Assembly (NCBI GenBank): GCA_964106915.2
Contig: OZ066920.1
DNA: 64,000 nt
Origin: Podarcis gaigeae
Lineage: Eukaryota
Reading direction: 5' to 3' (one strand)
Part shown: in pieces, positions 16,001-60,330 of the stretch
Position numbering within the stretch: position 1 is the first letter of the stretch
How the letters are laid out: each line of letters begins with the position of its first letter
The notes under the pieces: generated by a model
What the model was told of the DNA's origin: nothing
Databases searched by the model: none
Seen by the model: the letters and a program-made list of their open reading frames with translations, nothing else
Made by a program: the position numbers and the translations under genes

Positions 16001-18147
16001 CCGAACAGGACTTGTAAGCAAGAAGATGAGGAAGGATCACCCTCTTTAATCTGCTATTTCTGCAGAGGGAGATGTTCAAATACAAAGTTACATTGTTCTT
16101 TTTCCCCCAAGTAAAATTTAACTGCCAATATGCTTGCCAAGTTACTAGTTTTTCAACTACAGTAGATGCTTGGGTTCCGAACGTAATCCGTGCGGGATGC
16201 ACATTTGCAACCCGCAGCAGCGTGTCTGCGCACGCGTGGGTTCCGATTCAGCACTTCTGTGCGTGCGCAAAACGTGATTTAGCACTTCTGCGCATGCGCG
16301 ACTGCAGAAACCCAGAAGTAACCCATTCCAGTACTTCCGGTACTTTCTTTTATTGCTCAGAAGCAGTAATACAAGCAATTGGATTGCCTTTCAGGTTGTT
16401 TTCATAACAGTTTGAATTCTATGCTGTTATTAATAGCATATGTATAAATTTTATTATTTTCATTTTCACAAAAACTTCTGCAATGCAATTTTATATAAGG
16501 TTAGATCCAAAGGTGCCCTTCATGTGACAGAAAGAGTCCTATTTTAATTCAGCCCCCAAAACTTCTGCAACTACCTTTAGCATATTTGCTGCTTTAAAAT
16601 ATATGCTAAACCTCCCTCATCTACCACCTATCCAAGTACCAGTAAATTCTTTACAATGGTATAGAACACTGTTTTTCAAACTATGTTCCAATAATGCAGA
16701 GGTTCCTGGAAGCTTATTGGGGGCTTGAAGGCATTCTTAATATCAGCACCCAAACTGTGGAATGCCCTTCTTTCCCAGATCCAACTGGTGCTGAAACTGA
16801 TAGATTTTCAGCATCAGTTAAAAACATACCTATTTGCCCAGGTTTTTTGCTAAACTGGTATACAGTTGTGTAGCCTGCTCTCAGTGACTTATCAATCTGT
16901 TGTGATTAAGAATTTTTAGCATTTTATTTGTTTTATGAAAATGATTTCATTGTGAGTGGTGTGTTTATTTTGTATATTGTAAACCATTCTGGAATTATTT
17001 TTAATGATAAACAGGTTAGAATAGAATATTAAGATCAGCATTAGGTCTACCCTAAACTATGGATTGCAAATCCCTATCAATCTTCCTCTCTGATATAAAG
17101 CTGTGGGAAAATTAGGGTTCCATTCTATGATATAATTTCAATTAACATGATGCAATAGTCAGATCTGAAAGGCTTATCCAGGCCTTTACATGAGGTAGTT
17201 AAACCCCTAGAACTTTCTTCAATAATGCAGGAGTGCTGCAGCAGATAGGTAAAGAGCAAGCTTCCTCAAACTCGGCCCTCCAGATGTTTTTTAGGCCTAC
17301 AACTCCCATGATCCCTAGTTAGCAGGACCAGTAGTCAGGGATGATGGGAATTGTAGTCTCAAAAAACATCTGAAGGGCTGAGGTTGAGGAAGCCTGGTAA
17401 AGAGTTTTTTAGTAGAAAAGCTGATTTAGAAACAATTACTCCACAGTAAAAAAACAGTTAACAAACAAAATTAAAGGACCACAGCTGCATAAAACAAACG
17501 AATGGCAATATAACATTGAAGAAATACAAGAACTTTGCCTTGTTCTGCCTCCTTTTGTGATTCCAATTCAAATTCATTCATTGCAACCAGAAAGATTACA
17601 AGTTTAGGAAAGTCAGTAACTTTTGTATTCTGGAAAGAACCAATATAATTTTTTATTATAGCATAATATAAACTTTCCTTTGCTCCCCTCCCTTGTGTCG
17701 CTCCCACAAAATTGTGCTCCAGGGGGTTGGAAGACCCTCAGGCAGGTTTCAGGAGTGCTACAGAGGGCAGAGAGGAAGTCTTGTGATACAAGAGTCTACT
17801 CACATGACTCTGGATGTTTGCAACCTTTACTGAAAAAAAATATTTTACATAAAAACCATGCAGTTCAGTTGTTCCTTCTGAGATAAAAATGTAAATGAAA
17901 TAATTGGCATGTTTTCTCATAAGCTTATGTTCTTGGTTTAATATATAAATATGGATTAAATGGATACAATACAATATTAATAAAAATGAAATACCTTCTC
18001 AGCAATACTATATAAAACTTCATCCATTTTCATACATGTTGGATCCCAGTCATGCCCAAAACGAATGACCACCACACGGTCTTCTTCTGAAAGAATGGCC
18101 TGGTCTACTTGCCAGCCATTGTGTAAATGTGGAAGCATATACGACAT
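13029..18147 (-). CDS. TXNL4A: Thioredoxin-like protein 4A (U5 snRNP Dim1), 142 aa, 3 coding exons
   Basis: Exons 18147-17995, 13672-13569, 13200-13029 (153+104+172=429 nt) give MSYMLPHLHNGWQVDQAILSEEDRVVVIRFGHDWDPTCMKMDEVLYSIAEKVKNFAVIYLVDITEVPDFNKMYELYDPCTVMFFFRNKHIMIDLGTGNNNKINWAMEDKQEMIDIIETVYRGARKGRGLVVSPKDYSTKYRY*. GT-AG sites; non-coding exon 1 ends at 19350; poly(A) signal at 12860-12865. Confidence 0.97.
13747..13988. mobile_element. Tc1/mariner-type MITE in a TXNL4A intron
   Basis: ta-cagtgttacctcggg...ccaaggttccactg-ta; an inverted, truncated relative lies at 16160-16345. Confidence 0.75.
16160..16345. mobile_element. Truncated Tc1/mariner-type MITE (inverse of 13747-13988)
   Basis: Reverse-complement similarity to the 13747 copy (e.g. 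gaaacccagaagtaacccattccagtacttccggg). Confidence 0.7.
17257..17396. mobile_element. Palindromic hAT MITE with perfect 8-bp TSD
   Basis: ca(a/g)gcttcctcaa...ttgaggaagcctg; TSD gtaaagag on both sides; relatives at 57720 and 59283. Confidence 0.85.
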
Positions 18148-41325: not shown

Positions 41326-42968
41326 TCCACACCTGCCTCTGTTCAAGGTCAAATGGTCTTTTGTCCCATGAGAAAAACAAGTCCCAAATATAAATAAAAA
41401 AACCACAAAAGGTTTCAATAAAGCTCAGTTCCCATGCAACTATGTTTCCACAGTCCTATAGGGGGAGTACTCCAAAGCTTCGAAAAAGAAAGGAACTATT
41501 TTCCGCCATTGAAGTTCCTCAATTCCCCATATTGAGATTAGTAATTCCCAAACACGAAAGGAAGGTTTCCAGGACTTCTAGTCTTTTAAAATCCAGCCAT
41601 AAAGTATCAATACAGGTCCATGTAACAATGTTTAATATTAGTATCTCAGTCTATGCAACAATTTCGATCTCTGCAACAATGTCGTCAGTTTGACAGCAGT
41701 TTGACAGTTCTTTTTCTATGCACTGGCAGCCCGGTGACGGGGTTATCTCTTTCAGCCCCGTTTAGCCCAGAAATTGGAGGATAATTCTAACGAATAAAAG
41801 TCTATACAACCCACAGTTCTTTCCTTTTTGGCTTCAAAATACAGAGTCTCTCAATGCACCCTTTCTTCCACTTTAACAATCCCTTTTTAAATACTTCAGC
41901 TCGTTTCCGAGCCCTTGCTTTGATCTAATTAGCAGAGTCGGGAGGCGGACTTCCTGTTACTCGCCTCCCGCTTTCGGCCGAATTTCTTCAATTAAGTTGG
42001 AAAATTTAGGACCCTTACTCACGGGTATGTTGCTCCAATTCCGATAATTTCAAGAAGAAAGGTCAGCGCTCATCAGCAGCAGCAGCGCGGCTTTGCTTCC
42101 ACGAAAAGAGCGATGAACTCACAGCGCCGCTCCCCCTTTCATGTTCCGGAGCCTCTTACGAGGCTCCTTCCCCGCTTCTGGGGGGGCTCCAGGCGCCCGC
42201 CGAGTCCCACGGCCGCAGGCTCACTCTGCCTGCGGTTTTTCTTGATGGGTCTCCGCTTTGCCGCAGCGGACGACCCTTTTTCGCGGAGCCCCTCTTCACA
42301 GCGCAAAGAGGACCGCCATTGCTGTTTCGCGCCGCCTCCGGAAGTCTCAAATTTATTGCCAGTTCACCAATGAGAAACTAAAACTATCAATACAATAAAG
42401 GCTAATCAACCTATTGTCTATTTTATTGTATGAGTCTTATCCAAGAAACCATGAACTTTAGAGAGAGAGAAACAGAGATATTCTGAGTTGCGTTGCATGT
42501 CATGCTTCTGGTTGTTTTACTCACATGTGAAATAGCATTTTGAAAAACTGTTGGCAGAATCTGAAACTTTGGGAAATGATCTTTAAAATGATATATGAAA
42601 ATTAAAAAAATGGGTTTGTAGGTTGACATTTTCATGGAATTACGGTTGGGGTGCATCAACAGGAGAAGACCAAAACATTCATGCTCTGCTGTTTGTTTCC
42701 CATAGGCACTGAGCAGGGCTCTGCTCATGTTATTCCGTAGTTTGTTACACTATGGTTAGTCCCATGTTCATTTTTTCAGTGGAGGGCAAATGACTAAGTC
42801 TTCAAATGACCCAGTTGTGGTTTCAGAACTGTAGGAAGAATTGTTTGGTGTTGCTCTATGTTGCTCCTGAATCTTTTTCACATGCCCATCTTCAACACAC
42901 AATTTCAAAACCAGAAGGAGCAGTTTGATGTTTGCACACCCCATTTAGTCTTTGCATACCTTCACAGA

Positions 42969-43290
42969 CAGGGCCAGATTTAGGTTTGATGAGGCCCTAA
43001 GCTACTGAAGGTAATGGGGCCCTTTACATGTCCAGCTGTCCTTTGTCAACAACAAACCGTCACTGTTTTTGTGTGTTGAATATATGCTATATGGTAATTT
43101 ATGGACCTAATAGGCATCTAAAGCCATTTGCACATAACAAAATATGTATTTTATCACAGTAATTGTTGAACTGAAAGAGAAGAAGTATATTAATAGTGAA
43201 ATAAAATTAAAAAGAAGTATATTTGGGGGGGGGCAAGAGAATGGGGCCCTAAGCTATGGCTTGTTTAGCTTATACATAAATCCAGCACTG
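42969..43290. mobile_element. hAT-type MITE
   Basis: TIR cagggccagattta...taaatccagcactg; 8-bp TSD ttcacaga/ctcacaga. Confidence 0.7.
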
Positions 43291-44043
43291 CTCACAGATA
43301 ATATTTCATTAAGGATGGGCTCCCAAAATACAAACAATTCATTCAAAGTGAAAAGGTGGCAAGTTCTGTTTATGTGTGGAGGCAGGTACTGAACTTGGGA
43401 GAGCTGGCACATGCTAGTAGCAGGACTAGGAGTGGAGAAGCCTGTATTTAAGATTTCCAATACCTATCAAGCTCATTGGGTAGCCTCAGCCCAACCTACA
43501 TCAAAGGGTTGATGGGAGGATAAAATGGATGGGGAGAACTGCCGTTCACCATCCTGAGCATCTTGAAACGTAAACGTAAATAAATGACAGCGTATCCAGA
43601 TAATGCCAAATTGTAAAATACTTGTTATTCTGATCTTTTTTTCTTCAACTGATAAACTTATTTCTCTTCCATTGCTACTGGCTGCCAATATTTCCCCCTT
43701 TGGGTGAAATAACCGACAGCAAGAGGGCTGTGATTACCTCTAGTTACTCTTTTACCTGTACAGAAGATTTCCGCCTGCAAGTCCTCCTAGCTGAACTAGG
43801 CTCCACTGCAGCTTCGCGGTTTCCCAGCCCAGGGAACAAAGTCCTTCCTTGCCGACTCCTTAGCTGGGGACTCACAACACTCCGGGATTTATTCCCGGGT
43901 GATTTCCACGTCCCGCAGCTCTGCTCCGAATCAGCAGGTACCAGTTCAAGAGCAACTTTTCTGAAGGAGCTGAAATACGTTTCTTTCCACAAGGTAATTT
44001 GTATTTCTTTTGGAGGCAAGCGAAGGCGCCATAGTACTTGATA

Positions 44044-44046
<3 letters not shown>

Positions 44047-44084
<38 letters not shown>
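44047..44084 (+). repeat. (TC)n microsatellite
   Basis: Direct reading. Confidence 0.95.
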
Positions 44085-44088
<4 letters not shown>

Positions 44089-44105
44089 GGTTGCTAATTT
44101 TTATT

Positions 44106-44184
44106 GAAGACAGGAGTGCCTGGCGTCCTCTGGTCTATGGAGTCACGAAGAGTCGGACACGACTAAACGACTAAACAACAACAA
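44106..44184 (+). mobile_element. RTE-BovB LINE 3' terminal fragment
   Basis: gacagg..gcctggcgt...tggagtcacgaagagtcggacacgactaaacgactaaac followed by a (CAA)n tail is the BovB 3' end. Confidence 0.85.
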
Positions 44185-44387
44185 AACTTTATTATCCTTT
44201 TACTGACGCCTTTCCCCCCTTTTGCATCTTCTAAGGTGCTGCTTGTCTGTGTAGGAATTTCCTAAAGGCAAACATTCTCACAAAACTAGCAAGCAAACCA
44301 GCCCCTGCCCTAAGCGGAAGTTCCTAAATCCCATGGGGCTTATGGCTCTCCAGAAATGTCCCATCCCTAATTGTCATTTGCTTGGGT

Positions 44388-44640
44388 TACAGATAGGTAG
44401 CCGTGTTGGTCTGCCATAGTCAAAACAAAAAAAAATCCTTCCAGTAGCACCTTAAAGACCAACTAAGTCAGTTCTTGGTATGAGCTTTCGTGTGCATGCA
44501 CACTTCTTCAGATACAGTAAAAGGATAATAAAGTTTTGTTGTTGTTTAGTATCTGAAGAAGTGTGCATGCACACGAAAGCTCATACCAAGAACTGACTTA
44601 GTTGGTCTTTAAGGTGCTACTGGAAGGAATGTTTTTTGTT
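44388..44640. mobile_element. Penelope-like element remnant: inverted pair of terminal repeats
   Basis: ~95-bp inverted arms 44421-44515 and 44549-44643; 17-bp direct flank ttgtcatttgcttgggt at 44371-44387 and 44641-44657; minus-strand end cagaccaacacggctacc resembles reptile Penelope termini. Confidence 0.75.
44549..44586 (+). ncRNA. Minimal type-I hammerhead ribozyme motif (Penelope-associated); mirror copy on minus strand 44478-44515
   Basis: GUAU-CUGAAGA-A-[GUGUGC au GCACAC]-GAA-AGCU-C^-AUAC: conserved core boxes, stem II hairpin, palindromic AGCU helix III, stem I GUAU/AUAC. Confidence 0.65.
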
Positions 44641-45325
44641 TTGTCATTTGCTTGGGTGGGTATTTAATTCCAGCCAATAAGAGAGGTATATGCAAATTAA
44701 TAGGGGGTGTCGTTATCTGAGCTTTTTCCGGGGAGGGGGCACGGATCACGTTGTCTCTGCAGCTCAAGCTTTGTGACAGTAGGCAATTCCATTCTCACCG
44801 GGGGAGGGAAGGAGTTGTAATAGTCAGATTTTGTTTTAAATTGGGGCGCACTTTTTTGGAAAAAATACACTTGGGCGAAGTGAATCCTTTTGTTCCTTCG
44901 TCTGCATTTGTTATCGCTGAATAGCAACTGGAGGCGTCATTTCACGAGGTGATAGTGACTCACGTCTTGTAACACTTGTTTATGAAGTTGGTTTTGTATT
45001 TAGTTCGTTGAATTTCTTCTTAAAATCCAGATATATATATTAAATTTGGGGAAAGTGTTGTGTGCACTGCAGTGCAGGGGGAGAAATACAGCATTCAGAA
45101 GCATTGTGTGCAATAATATTTACAGCAGGGTCCAAATGTTCATCTTTTGATATGGTCAGGATTAGATTACAAAACGTCTAGTATGTTTCATGATGGTGTT
45201 TAGTTTTTTTCCTTTATGTAAGACACTAATTAGTGTTTCTCAACAGAATTTATACTAAGAACACTCCATTCTTGCTAATGCATCAGTAGTGGTATAGATT
45301 ACCTGGACTCCCTTGGGAGGAAGGG

Positions 45326-45326
<1 letters not shown>

Positions 45327-45366
<40 letters not shown>
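45327..45366 (+). repeat. (AAT)n microsatellite, probable tail of a decayed L2 end
   Basis: Direct reading; preceded by gaagggtat. Confidence 0.9.
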
Positions 45367-45368
<2 letters not shown>

Positions 45369-45683
45369 GTGAAAGCCTTGAACCTTGATGGGCACTTCCA
45401 CCTTGATCTTATTCGCCTTTACTCAGAATTAAGCCCTGCTAAATTCAGTTGGATTTACTCCCAAATTAAATCTGCATAGATTACACAATTTTGGACTGAA
45501 TGCTTTGGAATGCTAATTAGCAGTCTTGGATATCCCCGCCCTTATTGTATAAAGGAACCACCCTGTTAATCACAATGAACTAGATAAAAACAATAATCTG
45601 AAGAGAAACACTGCTGTCTTCACATTAGTTTTAAAAAATGAGTTTTGATATATAAATTCTTTTTTCTATACTGTATACAGACC

Positions 45684-48600
45684 ATGGAAGAGAACGAGCA
45701 TCCATATACACTGATAAATGTTATAGGAGGCACAAATGGAGTATATGAAGACCATGTGGAGTTTCTGGAGAAACATTTTAAGCTCATTACCATGAAGGAA
45801 TTTACTGAAAACAAGCAAAATCTTAGTCATAAAATCAAAGCAATTTTTATGTGGTTTCACAAACCAGTGGTTGACAGGGATCTCCTGCAAAGCTTGCCTA
45901 ATTTAAAGGTGATTGCAAACTGTGGCGTAGGCGTGGATCACTTGGACCTAAAACTGATCTCCAGCTTTGGCGTGAAAGTAGCAAACACCCCATTTGCAGT
46001 TTCCAGTCCTACAGCAGACTTGGGGATGGCTTTGATGCTGGCTTCTGCCAGGAGGATTGTGGAAGGTACACTTTAGCTTTCCAATTAACTTGCTTTAAAA
46101 CATGGTGTGAATGAAACTGATTGTGTACGGGTTGCTGTGCTTAAAAGTCATAGAGTGATCAGATAAAGGAAATTATTAAATGCTGTTTGTTGATAAAAAT
46201 TTCCAAACAAATCCTCCCTAGAAAACATATTTGGTCTTACAAAACACCTGCCCTGTAATTACAGTCTATTGGATTTTGCAAACTATTTCTTGGACGAGGA
46301 AGTTTTTTTCTCATGTTCTACAAGCACTTGATTATATAGGCCTATAAACAGAATTAGGCATGTGCAGAGAGGTCTATCTGTAAAATGTCTATATAGTCAG
46401 CAGAATGTCTGTATAGGTTGGAGAATGCCTTGTTGAACTAGCAAACTCATGGATAAACCTGTTCTACATTTCCAATATACATAAAATATATTGCCTAGCT
46501 GGTGAATACTGAAAGTGGGTCACAGATAATTGCACTCCCACAGATGTTTGATTTTGATCCACTCGCACAGGTATCTTTTGAAGGATGTGATGACATCCTG
46601 CTGCTGGTAGAACTATATCTTCATATCTGTTAATTTTATATATTTATACTACGTTCCAGCTCAGATTAAGAACTCCCACAGGCAAGTTCACAACAGTCCA
46701 TGTCTTAGTTCGAAAAATCAGAGAGCAGTGAAAGACAAAGTAAAATGTTTAGAACAAAAATAATAGCTAGCAAGATTAAAACACACTGGTATCATGACAT
46801 AATAAAAATGTCTTAATTGTCAAAAAGAGGAGGGGGACAGATAAACAGCCCTAGGGAGAGATTTCCATAATTGGGGTTCTGTCAATGAAAAGGCCCTACC
46901 CCAAACATCCCCACCAATCACTCCTCGGATGAGTATAACTGTATATTTGGGCAAAAAAGGTGTGTGTCTTCAAGGAAGATTTGGGACCTGGTATGTAGTA
47001 TTTTAGAAATCAAAGCAGTTGTTGTTCAAATACAGCTCAGAGCTCTTAAAACCAGAGCAAGTTGGGATGGGCATCACACCGTATGTTTGTTAGCTGATCT
47101 CCTAAAACACTGCAAACCCTCATTTTCTTTTGTCTGTCTGAATTTCTAGGTCATCAGATTGCAGTTTCTCCTGACACTAAATGTTTTATGGCTGACTGGT
47201 TAGGAGAAGAAATTAACGGTGCAACGCTGGGGATCATTGGAATGGGCGCTATTGGGTACAAAGTGGCCCAGAGAGCCAGAGCTTTTGAAATGAACATTCT
47301 TTATCATAATAGGAACCGGAGGTAAACCTCTGCCTGATCTCGGTGTTTTAATCTGATTTTACCCACCTGATAACTTCAGCATTTATTTTGTCACTGTTTG
47401 CATAAATCCATTGTGCTTTAACTGAGTTTCCCTGGACTGCCTAAACATTTACTGTGAATGTTAATAGAGTACCTATTAAACAAGGCCTACTTCTCTGAGA
47501 AGTGACAAGGTCATGAGTAGGAATAGAAAGATCTGTCAATTTCCATTCTTTCAGTTTTTCAATCTTACATTTGGTTCTCTATATCTCTGCAACAATTGGG
47601 GAATTATTATTTTTTAATTTTCCTCATGAGAATTCATCAGTATTATAATGCAAATTTTCCCAGGTGAAGACATTTTGGATTAAAGTACACATTTCTGCAA
47701 GCAATTTTTCCTAACACAATGCATTTTTAATGTTAGTTTAACTAATACATTCAGTTTTATTCACACTTTCTCCTAATATATTCAATTTTGCTAACATTGT
47801 TTGTGCATTGCACAATTCAGACAAGTACAGATTTCCAAGGATAGCTGTATTTTCATTTCACCAATCCTTTCTAATATCTCCTTGTCTGGTCACTGGCTGG
47901 TCTTACTTAGGTTTGATTTCTTTTGGAAGGAGAGGTCCCTGGGGACTTAAGGTGTTTTGGTAATATCTGGGTTTGTTTACAAATATAAAATGTGATCGTA
48001 GGTGGAAGCAGATAGCACAGGATTCCTACAAGCAGAAAATCCACTGCTGCCCCATCTAACCTCCATAGGGAATAAGTATTCCCAAATGCTTTTTTTACTT
48101 GCAGCTTGGCTGTTTTACTGTCCCCCCACCCCCGCCTCCAAAATCCTGCCTTTTTACACACACCTTAGCTGGGAGGAGGAAGAAGAAATAGCACTTACCC
48201 CGCCCCCCGGCTCTGATGGATTTCACATTCCTCATAAATTTCTGTTTTGTATCCCTGAGTGCTGATTGTGACTCGGAGACAGTCTTGCGACCTTCCTTCT
48301 CCAAAAAAGGATGTACAGTGGTGCCTCGCAGGACGAAAATAATTTGTTCCGCGAGTCTTTTTGTCTTGCGATGTTTTTTGTCTTGCGAAGCACGGTCCGT
48401 CGCAACTGCGCCTCTTTAAGCAGCTTTAGGGGAAAAGCGAACAAACTCGCAAGACGTTTTCGTCTTGCGAAGCAAGCCCATAGGGAAATTCATCTTGCGA
48501 AGCAACGCAAAAATCGAAAAACCCTTTCGTCTTGCGGGTTTTTCGTTTTGCAAGGCATTCGTTTTGCGGGGCACCACTGTATATAGCTGGTACACTAGCT

Positions 48601-55230: not shown

Positions 55231-58200
55231 ATATTATTATTATTATTATTAATAATAATAATAATGACAGCCATAGATTTGCAATACTTACCTCTCTGAG
55301 TAAGGCAGACTTCTTTTGGGAAAGGATAAAGTCATAGAATTGTAGAGTCAGAAGGTGCAACCCCCCCTGCAATGTAGGAATACTTTTGCTCAATAGGGGC
55401 TCGAACCCACAACCCTTAGATTAAGAGCCTGGTGCTGAACCAGCTGAGCTCTCACTGCTGTTCACTAGGCCCTGTGCAGAGTACCAATGACACTTGCTGC
55501 CCAGGAAGCTCATAAACGGCAATGAATTGTTTTCCTGATCCCACCCAGCCCCCCTAAGGAGGGGATTGGGCCCCTCCTTTAGCACTTTCTACTGATTATT
55601 ATTGTTATGAGTTGGTGGGGGGCGGCAGGGAAGTAGAATGTATGGGAGATCCTTCTAACCCCGGATACAGTAAGGATCCAGGCTATTGTTGTTATTGTTG
55701 TTCCTGTTTCAATTTATATAGTGCCCTTTATCAAAAGATCTCAGGGTGGTGTACAGCATTAGAAATACATTACAAAACATCAAAAACATAGTTAAAAGCA
55801 TGCTGACAGACAGCCTGATAGTAAAATCATCATAATAATAACCGTCCTCTCCCCCACACTTTCGCAGGGCAGGCCATAGATTATTTAAAAGCCATAGGCT
55901 TGGGTAAAGAGGAATGTTTTTGCCTGGCGTCTAAAGACATGTAATGAGGTCGCCAATTGAACCTCTCTGGGGAGAGCATTTCACAAATGGGGAGCCACCA
56001 CAGAAAAGGCCCTTTCTCTTATTGCCACTCTCTGAACCTGTCTGGAAGCAGGACATAGAGAAGGGCCTCAGATGACAAGTGCATCTGCCCAGGGCCGTCT
56101 TTAGCAGATGCAGCGCTGGGGTGCAAATATCCACTCACCGCCCCCAAATTACCACAGATGGAGGGGCGAAGCTGCGCACTGCCAGCCATGGTGTGTGTGT
56201 GTGTGCGTAAGTCTCCCCCATGCCGCTGTGGGAGAGCAATCCCCACAGAGGCTTGGGAGGCAAGCTGCGCATGCGCCAGCCATATGGTTGGCGAGGCGCA
56301 GCTGGCGGGTGTGCAGGGAAAGGGGAGGCCGCCGACAAAGCCGCGCAGCTCCCCCACTCACTGGGGTGCTCCTGAGAGGCTGGTGCCCTGGCGCAACGAA
56401 CAACTCAGCCATATGGGAAAGACGGCTCTGCATCTGCCTCTCCCTAGAATAGTGCTGCTGTATTTTGACATATGTTTGATACATTATTGCTCATGTTAAA
56501 TCCATAAAACTCATATAGTCTCTCTCTCTTTTTGAAAGGAAGAAGTTTTGGTATGATAGTCCTGCACTGGGCTCTTCCCTGGTAAGCACAGACAGATTTT
56601 TAAATCGGAAATACAACTACAAAGGAAAAGTAGGTCATGGTTGATGCACAAGATATTCCTCTCAGCAATCTTTTTTTTTTGTTTTAAAGGCACACAAGCC
56701 ATCCAACTTGGCAAGTATTTTAAAGCTTCGTCCACCAAAAGTGAAGACCGAAGACAGCATACGTAAAAGAGCCCTAAATGTTCTGCTGTTCAAAGCTGTG
56801 AGAGATGTCCTGAGTACCTTTGAGGCTGGCCAAGAAGTTTATGACCTCAATGTGGAACTGTCTAAGGCAAGTACAAAAGGCGTCAATCCAGCAAAGTCCC
56901 TAATATAAAGTTGTGAGATCAGAAATGTAATAGGACCGTCAAAGCCCAGTCATGAAACCTGTTCTACAGACTTCATGATGGTATGTTGCAGTCTGACTGC
57001 AAGAACTGTAACAGAATTGGAAAAGGGCCTGTAGTTCAACCCTTGGTTAATGCAGGATATTCATCACTCCCTGTCGAAAGTCGGGCATAAGTAGAAAAAG
57101 TTGGATATGGGAAGAGAACAGCTAGATACACAGGTATTGTTGTCAGGAATTGCTTTGCTTAGGTAATAGTAATCCTCTTCTTGAACCTCTTGAATGTAAT
57201 GGGATTATTGTCATTGCCCTCTTCCCAGCTTACGAGTTCTTCACCATGTAAAATGTGCCCTTACAACTGGCATTTTGAACTCCATAGGCGTCCCTCACAT
57301 CAGATTTTTCAGTATGTCGTATCTACTGGAAGACTACTGGCAGTGTGGAACATGATGACTACATTGAGAAGGTTCTACAGAAGAGTGGTCCACGTGTAAG
57401 GTACTACAGTGTTGTATCCAGAGGAGGGTGAATGTCCTTGTCTAGAGGCCATATTGGCAACTTTAAAAGGGTACGTTGAGTGCTGGACTTAAGAATATGT
57501 GGTCAATTGACTGGTTTATTATTTGGCTGTGGTCAAATTTCCAAAGTCTAAAATGCCACTATGTAGGTGATATAAAAACTTTGTCTAACACTGTAAAGAT
57601 GGTGATTCATCTTTAAAAAGTGCTTCTGTGATTAGCATAAATATTAAACCTGTTCACAATTCAAGCATCTCTTTAACTAACACGTTAAAAATAGTTTGCC
57701 AATATATGATTGTCTAACTCAGGCATGGCCAGACTTGGCCCTCCAGCTGTTTTGGGACTACAATTCCACAATTCCCATCATCCCTGACCACTGGTCCTGT
57801 TAGCTAGGGATGATGGGAGTTGGTAGTCCCAAAACAGCTGGAGGGCCAAGTTTGGCCATTCCTGGTCTAATTGGTCAAATGGTGTTTTTGTTACTCAAAT
57901 GCCCAACTTTAGCTTGCTTATGTTACACCGTTAGGCTCGCAAGCATCTTCAGCACATGTGGAAACATGTATGTACTGTTTTCCTTCGGTTACATTCTTAT
58001 GCAACATGCACAGACAGATATGCATGCTTGCTCATGTGCACACAAACAAATACACTTCCATGCAAGTGTTCAAAATAACATTTTTGTGTATACACAGAGC
58101 AGTCCATGTTAGTTTTCAAAAACACACATACAAAATACGTTTCTGCTTCCGTTCATTGGAACCTACTTGACTGGGATCTGCAAGAATCTGCTCTAGAAGA

Positions 58201-60330
58201 GGAAGCTGCACTGCTGAATAAACAGGAAAGAGTGGCTTGTTTCCTGTGCATCACTCTCACTTTGCAAGAAATCCCTGCAAGGGTACTGTTAGCGGACATG
58301 GCCCTGTGGAATGGGGTTTGCCACAAAAGTTGGGTGGGCCTACTTTACTCTTTGAAAACTGGATAATTTTCCAATACAGTAATTAGAAGTTGTTACAGTG
58401 CTTCATTTTTTTATTCTATCTTTGTTTTTTGATTCTGATTTTCTTCAAACACTTAACAAATGTTGTAGCTGATTTTAATATTAGATGTTTCTCCTTCCTT
58501 CCTTCCTTCCTTCCTTCCTTCCTTCCTTCCTTCCTTCCTTCCTTCCTTCCTTTTTTTTTTTTTACAGACACCTTCTGATTTCACATCAGGTCCTAGGAAC
58601 CGTTCCTTCATTAGTGTTTGTCAGAGACAAAGAAGATGCTGCTATAAGAGAGGTAATGAAATTGTATAACTGTATTGTTAATATGCATTGTCAGGGTAAT
58701 TGCAGCATGGAGATGGGATACTGCTCCCACCCCTCCCCCATCCCACTGCCACAGAAAACCAGGGAAAGCCATTTTGGGATGCATTCATAGCAACTTGTTA
58801 ACAGAAATATACTATTGCACTAGGCTGATCCAGGGTGGGGTCCATTTTTCAGTCCAAAGGCCACATTCCCTCATGAGCAACTTGCTGGGTAGACAGGGGT
58901 CACATGCCAGCAGTGAGCAGGGCGAAGGGTTGTGGCCAGTGGCAAAAGTGGTAAAATAAATGGGTACGACACTTACCTGTGTGCAATATGCTACATTCCA
59001 ATTGTGTATGTCAGAATTTTCTACACATGCATCCATCCATCCAAGCAACTGAAAAGCGTTATCACATTTCAGGGGCATATTGTTTGCACAACACATTAAG
59101 CCAAGCTATGGCTTACTTGAAGTCCACAAACATGCAAGCTCCTGGAGAGGAGCTTGCAGCCATTTTGCTCCTCCTTGGTCCTTTTTTGCTCCCATACCGT
59201 CATTCAGACCCAGGCCTTTGATTAAACTGTCTCACTAACCACTAGCTGTAGGCAAGGTTTGTTCCTTTTTCAGAATCCACACCAGCCTTCCTCAACCTTG
59301 GCCCTCCAGATGTTTTCGGCCTACAACTCTCATGATCCCTAGCTAGCAGGACCAGTGGTCAGGGATGATGGGAATTGTAGTCTCAAAACAGGTTGAGGTT
59401 GAGGAAGCCTGATCCACACAGTAAACCCTAGATTGACTTACCATGATGCACGGTAATGAGGGCTTACAACTTATTTAACTTCTTGATTGTGCAAAGAAAC
59501 GGCCCTATTTCTGGATATCTTAAATGCGTGTGAATTTATTTTCCTGCAGCTTGAGAAGTTATTGGCAACTGCTGATTTTGGGCCTGAAGAAGAAGAAGGA
59601 AAGGAATCAGTTCAAAATGATTTCAGGTATAAAATTATAAACACAAATGTAACGCTTTGGAAAAACTAGTTAAAATATTTTAAGATGCGTTTTTAAGCTT
59701 CTGTTGGTTTGGTTAAGAGTTGTGTGCCTGTGGTAGGTGAAAGACTTTTCCACTCCTCCTTCCTATTGTAGTCTCAGTGTTCCCTTCCTAAAGTGCAGTA
59801 TCTGTCTCTCTAATTGAGGGACCCTCCGGAACATTGTGGGCTGCAGTGGGAGGGGGGAAATTGGCAAAAATTAGGGACAAGTATCATATACAGTTAGGGC
59901 TACAGTTCTTACTTTTTTATCCCTTTCTTGCAGTGAACGACGATACACCAAAGCCACCACATACCTGGACTCGTCCCTTTCCTGCATGCGTGATAATCTG
60001 TTTGGAATTGATCATGATGCATTAAATAAGCAAATAATTGAATACAAAAAAATGACTAAGGACAAGGAAATAGAAGGAGTTGGATTGTCAGAGCAGCAGA
60101 AGCAACAGCTGGCTGAGATACAAAAGCGCAAGAAAGTGAGATGGAAGAAAGCCAAGAAACCTTTTGATGATGGAATTACACCTCAGAAATACCTAATGGA
60201 CAAATACAGTGAAGATGATTGGGACAATGACACTGCGTCCTCACATGAACTGGAAAATGAACTGGAGGATGAATTGCAGGAAATGGAAGATAGACTGGAA
60301 GTAGATAACAGTACCACTGAGCACAAGTAA
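54993..60330 (+). CDS. RBFA: Ribosome-binding factor A, mitochondrial (367 aa, 7 exons)
   Basis: Exons 54993-55204, 56539-56581, 56690-56866, 57288-57400, 58568-58652, 59550-59626, 59934-60330 (1104 nt); Arg/Ala-rich presequence; motifs KKFWYDSP, RALNVLLFKAV, VELSKASLTSDFSVCRIYW, VPSLVFVRDK, ADFGP, LFGIDHDALNKQIIEYK; intron 3 is GC-AG. Confidence 0.93.
55331..55450 (-). mobile_element. tRNA-derived SINE with CR1-like tail
   Basis: Minus strand agctcagctgg...gggttgtgggttcgagcccc (A/B box-like) ending in ...ctctacaattctatgac. Confidence 0.55.
56090..56430. mobile_element. hAT-type MITE with perfect 8-bp TSD, next to a decayed minus-strand L2 fragment
   Basis: TIR cagggccgtcttt...aaagacggctctg; TSD catctgcc at 56082-56089 and 56431-56438. 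Confidence 0.85.
57720..57864. mobile_element. Palindromic hAT MITE
   Basis: caggcatggcca...tggccattcctg; TSD gtctaact/gtctaatt. Confidence 0.8.
58492..58563 (+). repeat. (TTCC)n + poly-T tract
   Basis: Direct reading; abuts the RBFA exon 5 acceptor. Confidence 0.95.
59283..59411. mobile_element. Palindromic hAT MITE with perfect 8-bp TSD
   Basis: cagccttcctcaacct...aggttgaggaagcctg; TSD atccacac on both sides. Confidence 0.85.

Follow-up and report, generated by a model that had tools for sequence, protein, structure and literature searches.

A young palindromic insertion of a Penelope-like element in a lizard genome and a possible double-priming origin

We analyzed a 64,000-nucleotide stretch of Podarcis gaigeae DNA (the window), in which 44371-44657 forms a palindrome with a hammerhead ribozyme core in each arm. 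An earlier reading made from the letters alone (the sequence-only reading) had described it as a Penelope-derived structure in a probable intron of a reductase gene. The locus raises the question of how two copies of one element end come to lie head to head, and of whether their ribozymes could act in a host RNA. The architecture of the insert is already published for Penelope-like elements (PLEs), and in the parts of the PLE literature available to us the origin of the inverted repeats and of the one-sided tail is called undefined. We consider it likely that the locus is a recent, promoterless PLE stump: two head-to-head copies of the 5' leader made by double priming on one RNA, joined through 32 bases copied during repair, with the ribozymes as passengers.

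Architecture, age, and identity of the insertion

We found the inverted arms described in the sequence-only reading, 95 nt each (44421-44515 and 44549-44643), with 2 mismatches, both within a T-tract. We also found the flanking 17-bp direct repeat, whose two copies (44371-44387 and 44641-44657) are identical and enclose an insert of 253 nt. Once the 2 to 3 nt that also match the element ends are subtracted, the net length of the target-site duplication is about 12 nt. The description of a palindrome thus held for the arms and the repeat, but it had missed a tail on the left arm and the origin of the filler between the arms. The left arm extends 33 nt past its mirror, to 44388, and these 33 nt are the tail. 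Leader positions are counted from an initiator-like A that follows a TATA box at a distance of 30 nt, and the two arms cover different lengths of the leader (Table 1).

Table 1. Positions of the insertion, its ribozyme motifs, its filler and donor, and the neighboring gene features in the window
Feature	Position	Strand	Basis and remarks
Very high-copy repeat, 3' end	44106..44184	+	Open frame ends in a stop, then an (ACA)n tail
Filler donor	44170..44205	+	166-201 nt upstream of the target; spans the high-copy repeat tail and unique flank
Target-site duplication, left copy	44371..44387	+	17 nt; single copy at the empty site of organism B
Long arm, leader +3 to about +131	44388..44516	-	Includes the one-sided tail (44388-44420); same end in sister copies
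Minimal type-I hammerhead	44478..44515	-	Motif scan and fold; C3 at 44511, predicted cut after 44482
Junction filler, 32 nt	44517..44548		Inverted copy of 44170-44205
Minimal type-I hammerhead	44549..44586	+	Motif scan and fold; C3 at 44553, predicted cut after C44582
Short arm, leader +4 to about +95	44549..44640	+	Leader alignment; tail absent
Target-site duplication, right copy	44641..44657	+	Repeat identity and the empty site of organism B
Putative splice donor, upstream non-coding exon	43991..43999	+	Exon end 43993; best donor-consensus score in 42500-45680
First coding exon, D-2-hydroxyacid dehydrogenase	45681..46065	+	Pfam PF00389, E 6e-17

We observed an empty site directly in a related species (organism B), where one contig (contig 19 of run X4) joins 44165-44370 straight to 44641-45317. 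This site holds one copy of the target, and the sequence that donated the filler is also present there. In organism A, contigs from two runs (X1 and X2) start at 44619 and 44632, within the right arm. In organism C (run X8), a contig begins at the right target copy, and none among the contigs listed bridges the site. Because the site is empty in organism B, the insertion is younger than the split of the organism A and organism B lineages. An assembly artefact is ruled out by the duplication, by the empty site, and by contigs at the right junction in two samples; one of these samples may be the source of the assembly.

The filler is a local copy. Its match to the donor is exact over 36 nt (44515-44550; E 2e-13), including a 2-nt overlap with either arm, and in the whole genome (1.5 Gb) a 29-mer from it has only two exact occurrences, one in the donor and one in the filler. 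Part of the donor belongs to the tail of a high-copy repeat and the rest to unique DNA, which makes the donor the original and the spacer the derived sequence. The donor also predates the insertion, as the contig with the empty site in organism B includes it. The repeat at 44106-44184, presumably an RTE/Bov-B-type LINE, reached a contig depth of 1.8 to 4.2 million in all four runs.

To identify the element, we counted exact genome-wide matches to a 35-nt core and found 11,067 (5,539 + 5,528), with 0 for the control. On the upstream side, longer copies carry an open frame with YIDD, a CX4CxxC linker, and GIY-YIG; on the downstream side, an open reading frame (ORF) starts about 10 nt past the tail. 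In the translation of one sister copy, L055, we read the reverse transcriptase (RT) motif YIDD, CX4CxxC, and a GIY-YIG domain with CCHH residues. Pfam GIY-YIG matched a sister copy at E 6.7e-6, above its cut-off, and Pfam RT gave no match to a query that covered the C-terminal part of RT only. The Penelope origin that had been claimed is therefore borne out, the same terminus being continuous with RT/GIY-YIG coding sequence. We assign the insert to an endonuclease-bearing PLE that is Neptune/Nematis-type by its linker, a placement that was read from the linker and CCHH residues of partial copies and that covers both clades together. A CX2-5CxxC linker defines Neptune/Nematis in the available account of these clades (10.1101/2021.04.23.441226), and in L055, as in those clades, a linker of this class lies between RT and GIY-YIG.

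Published endonuclease-bearing PLEs show an inverted, truncated pLTR, a one-sided tail of 30 to 40 bp, and a TATA box with an initiator (10.1101/2021.04.23.441226; PMC3846280). As far as these sources were available to us, they share with our element the head-to-head terminus, the tail at one end, the target duplication, the hammerhead in the pLTR, and the TATA box with initiator. At our locus the inverted, 5'-truncated pLTR has its tail at one end (about +131 vs about +95), and the target-site duplication (17 bp) is single at the empty site of organism B. Unlike the insertions described there, the insert consists of only two leader stumps, with neither ORF nor promoter, and its junction is a copy of the local flank. 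The green anole element Poseidon_Ac (PMC11167929) is likewise a lizard PLE with a hammerhead in its pLTR and two start sites that bound the tail. According to the parts of that study available to us, however, Poseidon lacks the linker finger, whereas our element has the Neptune/Nematis linker, and the Poseidon ORF starts inside the hammerhead, whereas the long ORF here starts beyond the tail. The locus is an ordinary young insertion of a very abundant element.

Ribozyme motifs in a putative intron

The insert lies ahead of copy 3 of three tandem D-2-hydroxyacid dehydrogenase paralogues (22597, 29879, and 45684), which we take to be glyoxylate-reductase-like. In the first coding exon the other two are 64 to 68% identical to copy 3. 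Copy 3 has an AG acceptor at 45679-45680 and its ATG at 45684, and an AG acceptor stands just ahead of the ATG in 3/3 paralogues. These acceptors, together with the best donor at 43993, make a 5'-UTR intron likely, and it is plausible from these signals that the insert lies within it (43993 to 45681). A CpG-rich stretch (41800-42400; observed/expected about 1) that precedes the putative non-coding exon by 1.5 to 2 kb is a possible promoter of dehydrogenase copy 3 or of a neighbor.

Several features of the ribozymes had been predicted correctly. A motif scan found hammerhead boxes on both strands, with the core boxes and stems I and II of the minimal type-I class and a palindromic AGCU helix III, and it agreed with the predicted cut after C44582. 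In the plus-strand hammerhead, stem I has 4 bp, stem II spans 44561-44574, and the AGCU helix III has no loop. Stem II is a perfect palindrome of 14 nt that folds as 5 bp with a 4-nt loop and not as the proposed 6 bp with 2 nt. Folded alone, each hammerhead formed the 4-bp stem I and the 5-bp stem II with an energy (about -7 kcal/mol) that did not stand out from that of shuffled sequences. The metazoan PLE minimal hammerheads (PMC4209133), as described in the available parts of that report, have the same boxes, an extra base before stem II, a short stem I, a palindromic 15.2-16.2, and a loop-less helix III. Unlike them, the copies here lie on opposite strands, and stem II is itself a 14-nt palindrome. 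A covariance-model search, which had been proposed as a check, returned no hammerhead: the Rfam hammerhead families gave no match in the whole window (up to E 1) or on 44530-44610 (up to E 10), as expected for a motif without helix III. All Rfam miRNA-family matches were below gathering scores and are generic hairpins.

Because the two hammerheads are on opposite strands, an RNA can carry only one of them, and a tandem dimer cannot form. We found that the whole 287-nt RNA (44371-44657) is predicted to fold as one hairpin of -186.2 kcal/mol (shuffles, -68.6 +/- 4.5; z, -26; 0/200 as good). In the hairpin context, the predicted pair probability of stem I is 6e-44 and C44582 pairs with 44482 at >0.999, while imposing the hammerhead fold on the full RNA would cost about 62 kcal/mol. 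The computed fold thus agrees with the proposal that the upstream antisense arm masks the sense hammerhead. When two isolated arms were co-folded, a 14-bp stem-II duplex was predicted instead of a helix-III dimer.

Minimal PLE hammerheads did not cleave as monomers (PMC4209133), and the lizard Poseidon hammerhead did not cleave without protein (PMC11167929), in the available portions of both reports. Since the sense ribozyme would be buried in the hairpin and minimal PLE hammerheads are inactive as monomers, self-cleavage in a host RNA is unlikely, and the folding model makes both ribozymes passengers that are predicted to be inactive there. If the intron is transcribed, the antisense arm would come first and would zip the sense hammerhead into a duplex of ~95 bp. 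Such a duplex would be a possible source of dsRNA or a possible substrate for editing by ADAR, with no self-cleavage and no selected function. More generally, each insertion of this kind is a long perfect genomic hairpin and a possible source of dsRNA where it is transcribed. The filler supplies the sole sense AATAAA of the putative intron (44527-44532), which lies in the hairpin loop with GT-rich sequence after it; an effect of this captured signal on polyadenylation is speculation.

Head-to-head palindromes across the genome

We found 686 symmetric head-to-head junctions with a gap of 0 to 11 and 328 with a gap of 12 to 19, compared with 0 and 2 for the controls; the two junction patterns can overlap, and the total is about 1,000 palindromes. 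Two samples were examined. Set 1 came from the first 100 listed core matches, which lie at a single contig end and are biased accordingly. It gave 54 duplication-bounded units, and removal of 5/54 (4 with false or nested duplications and the locus under study) left 49. Set 2 comprised 83 loci chosen by junction alone from 100 listed places, one of them taken out of order for its odd filler; 7/30 automatically fetched loci were removed (6 already in set 1 and 1 duplicate place). It is biased in that its junctions reach +4 and its fillers are at most 19 nt. One locus with a simple-repeat duplication was removed to give a subset of 67, and 3 more with uncertain ends were removed to give a subset of 64.

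All 36 two-armed units of set 1 paired a long arm with a short arm, and 0 were like-ended. The remaining 13/49 units were single-armed, which indicates that double priming is not obligatory. In set 2, a script called 76/83 loci long plus short, including 67/67 of those with duplications of at least 12 nt; on inspection, 6 of the 7 exceptions also read as long plus short, which leaves L139. Target duplications were mostly 12 to 14 nt, with the mode at 12 to 13. A G stood just after the duplication in 51/64 loci (background, 21%), and GT stood outside it in 26/64 and 23/64 on the two strands (background, 5%). The two arms carried a common subfamily variant, of roughly even frequency, in 66/68 cases (49% expected) and in 24/25. 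This speaks for a single template, but it could also reflect one active source locus per cell or later conversion between the arms, of which L099/L100 looks like a case. In 19/36 set 1 units the short arm reached >8 nt further 5' while the long arm had the tail (the reverse, 5/36). Neither arm contains the other in these 19 units, and they are therefore not the product of a simple fold-back.

The 5' ends of anchored arms fell at -7 to +8 in 31/50, at -8 to -46 in 0/50, and were spread out to -1166 in 19/50. Ribozyme cleavage was rejected as the source of these ends, as 0/35 far arms broke at +38. Copying of a cap G, tested as planned, showed no enrichment (32/131; p 0.99); at +4 alone the count was 26/48, a post hoc figure that is confounded by the partner arm. 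Fillers were diverse, with 71 distinct among the 83 set 2 loci. No flank-copied filler of >12 nt was found among the 52 set 2 fillers of at least 9 nt or in set 1, and one as long as that at 44517-44548 is atypical for these palindromes.

In 16/19 loci of the group L177-L196, the ORF start is cut after 46 to 78 nt and joined to the leader 5' end at 0 to +5. The joints of the 16 tandem stubs all differ, which rules out a fixed mini-element of leader plus ORF stub, and these partial tandems likely arose from a template jump at the RNA 5' end. A 33-mer from the ORF start has 163 exact genome-wide matches vs 11,067 for the core.

Two palindromes on one contig, L099 and L100 (about 15.004 and 15.027 Mb), lie 23 kb from each other; their flanks are unrelated and their target duplications differ. 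They have an unusual junction and private long-arm variants in common, and the short arm of L099 differs from its own long arm. It seems that one copy has converted the other or that a unit was copied as a whole.

About 1,000 clean palindromes give rules that can be counted: the pairing of long with short, the common variants, the symmetric nicks, and the stop at the start site. These rules can be tested directly in the existing in vitro lizard PLE system, and the family is more telling than any single locus.

A route to the palindrome and its alternatives

We read the integration mechanism wholly from end products. According to our model, the promoter (a TATA box 30 nt before an initiator-like TCAGT) would start the element RNA, and within the first ~135 nt of that RNA would lie the hammerhead as well as the two positions, about +95 and +132, at which reverse transcription starts. 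An RT-endonuclease that probably works as a dimer would nick the two strands at similar sites about 12 to 13 nt apart, and on a single RNA molecule each nicked 3' end would prime synthesis at a start site of its own. The two cDNAs would extend as far as the RNA 5' end; the one primed at the tail would probably be made later and displace the other. The two cDNA ends would be the same sequence and could not anneal, which leads us to infer that they are joined through microhomologies of 1 to 3 nt. At this locus, one end would first have paired over 2 nt with flanking DNA about 170 nt distant and been extended there by 32 to 34 nt before it reached the other end, much as polymerase theta makes templated insertions.

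Some of these steps have precedents in the sources available to us. The lizard Poseidon protein, modelled as a dimer, was found in vitro to cut both target strands and to extend them on RNA that is itself uncleaved. Synthesis begins at two internal positions, one at either end of the tail, and the available parts of that study draw no connection between these positions and inverted insertions (PMC11167929). LINE-1 (L1) provides precedents for twin priming and for templated inserts (10.1101/2024.08.27.596794; PMC11702581). As in our model, both ends are primed on one RNA, the duplication is kept, and the joins use microhomology. L1 templated insertions and polymerase theta also show the occasional copying of local DNA (PMC11702581; PMC7165422), and templated inserts in inverted orientation are a mark of polymerase theta (PMC7165422). 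The tract copied at our locus is, however, long and its source distant: polymerase-theta tracts are seldom >10 bp (PMC7165422), and L1 templated inserts, in the L1 reports cited, mostly derive from within 15 bp of the site. In L1, as described in those reports, the second primer uses variable internal sites and the cDNA overlap is small (median, 22 bp when present). Here, in contrast, neither start site varies and the cDNAs overlap along nearly their whole length, and the product is therefore a palindrome. In the papers that we consulted, mostly open-access main texts without the older PLE reviews, we found none that describes strict long-plus-short pairing with same-RNA priming for PLEs.

With some reserve, we lean towards the broader view that palindromes of this kind are normal PLE integration: a dimer making symmetric nicks 12 to 13 nt apart, a fixed split between a short site and a tail site on one RNA, strand displacement, and a run to the 5' end. 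If this is true, antisense self-priming need not be invoked: a single mechanism would cover inverted pLTRs, the one-sided tail, and, where the template is switched at the 5' end, partial tandems. The present locus would add that the final join can borrow a template about 170 nt away.

Two alternatives would change how the arms or the filler were made. In a fold-back, one cDNA or antisense template would loop back and copy itself without a second priming, as has been hypothesized for head-to-head PLE repeats and proposed for rotifer Penelopes in the available text of PMC3846280. The arms are nearly identical, with variants common to both in 66/68, and among the fillers there are many short snap-back repeats of junction sequence, which fits self-priming. 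Against this, neither arm contains the other in 19/36 units, and the second arm ends in a narrow class (about +86 to +103), flush with the target duplication. Moreover, seven units are short-end-only copies with their own duplications, which indicates that the short end acts as a priming site. We therefore think fold-back quite improbable. A different source for the filler, with the rest as in twin priming, is that the element RT jumped off the RNA 5' end onto nascent host pre-mRNA. The top-strand extension is complementary to the gene sense strand at 44170-44205, the 16 tandem stubs with their different joints imply jumps at RNA 5' ends, and the tract is long for polymerase theta. However, fold-back on a resected end gives the same orientation (PMC7165422), and there is one case only, so that we regard an RT jump as unlikely, though deserving of attention.

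Two others would give the palindrome a life of its own. Were the insert a working RNA switch within the host intron, its antisense arm would regulate the sense hammerhead, or its hairpin would act via editing or the AAUAAA of the loop. Intact catalytic boxes, the probable intronic sense-strand position, the very stable hairpin, and the sole sense AATAAA would fit such a role, but intact boxes are expected of a young copy, and the ribozyme fold is about 62 kcal/mol uphill. A special or regulatory role is not supported: the locus is one of about 1,000 like structures, it is absent from a close relative, and PLE minimal hammerheads showed no activity as monomers in the available parts of PMC4209133. 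We consider a switch very improbable. To a mini-element that copies itself as a unit, in the way of a MITE or a retrozyme, we give almost no credence. High copy number and the pair L099/L100, with the same unusual junction and private variants at unrelated sites, would agree with it. A MITE-like element would show the same internal junction at many sites, whereas 71 distinct fillers occur among 83 loci, and the filler here derives from the local flank and has no match elsewhere, which indicates that this palindrome was made in place and has not spread. A non-LTR retrozyme, with at least 2 same-strand tandem hammerhead units, was rejected as well, as the copies here are on opposite strands. Double priming on one RNA remains the reading that we prefer for this locus.

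The tandem retrozyme described in 10.64898/2026.07.22.740005 consists, in the text available to us, of same-strand units, and the insert here is not of that layout. Elsewhere in the genome, we observed same-strand tandem arrays of leader plus ORF stub at L184/L185 and L190, with a period of about 183 to 190 nt; L184/L185 has three hammerheads in a row. The layout of these arrays fits a PLE-derived retrozyme and could form a dimeric ribozyme. Within the window, a short hairpin repeat is present in three copies (17285-17368, 57746-57838, and 59309-59392); it matches a miRNA model below the gathering score and is probably another small mobile element.
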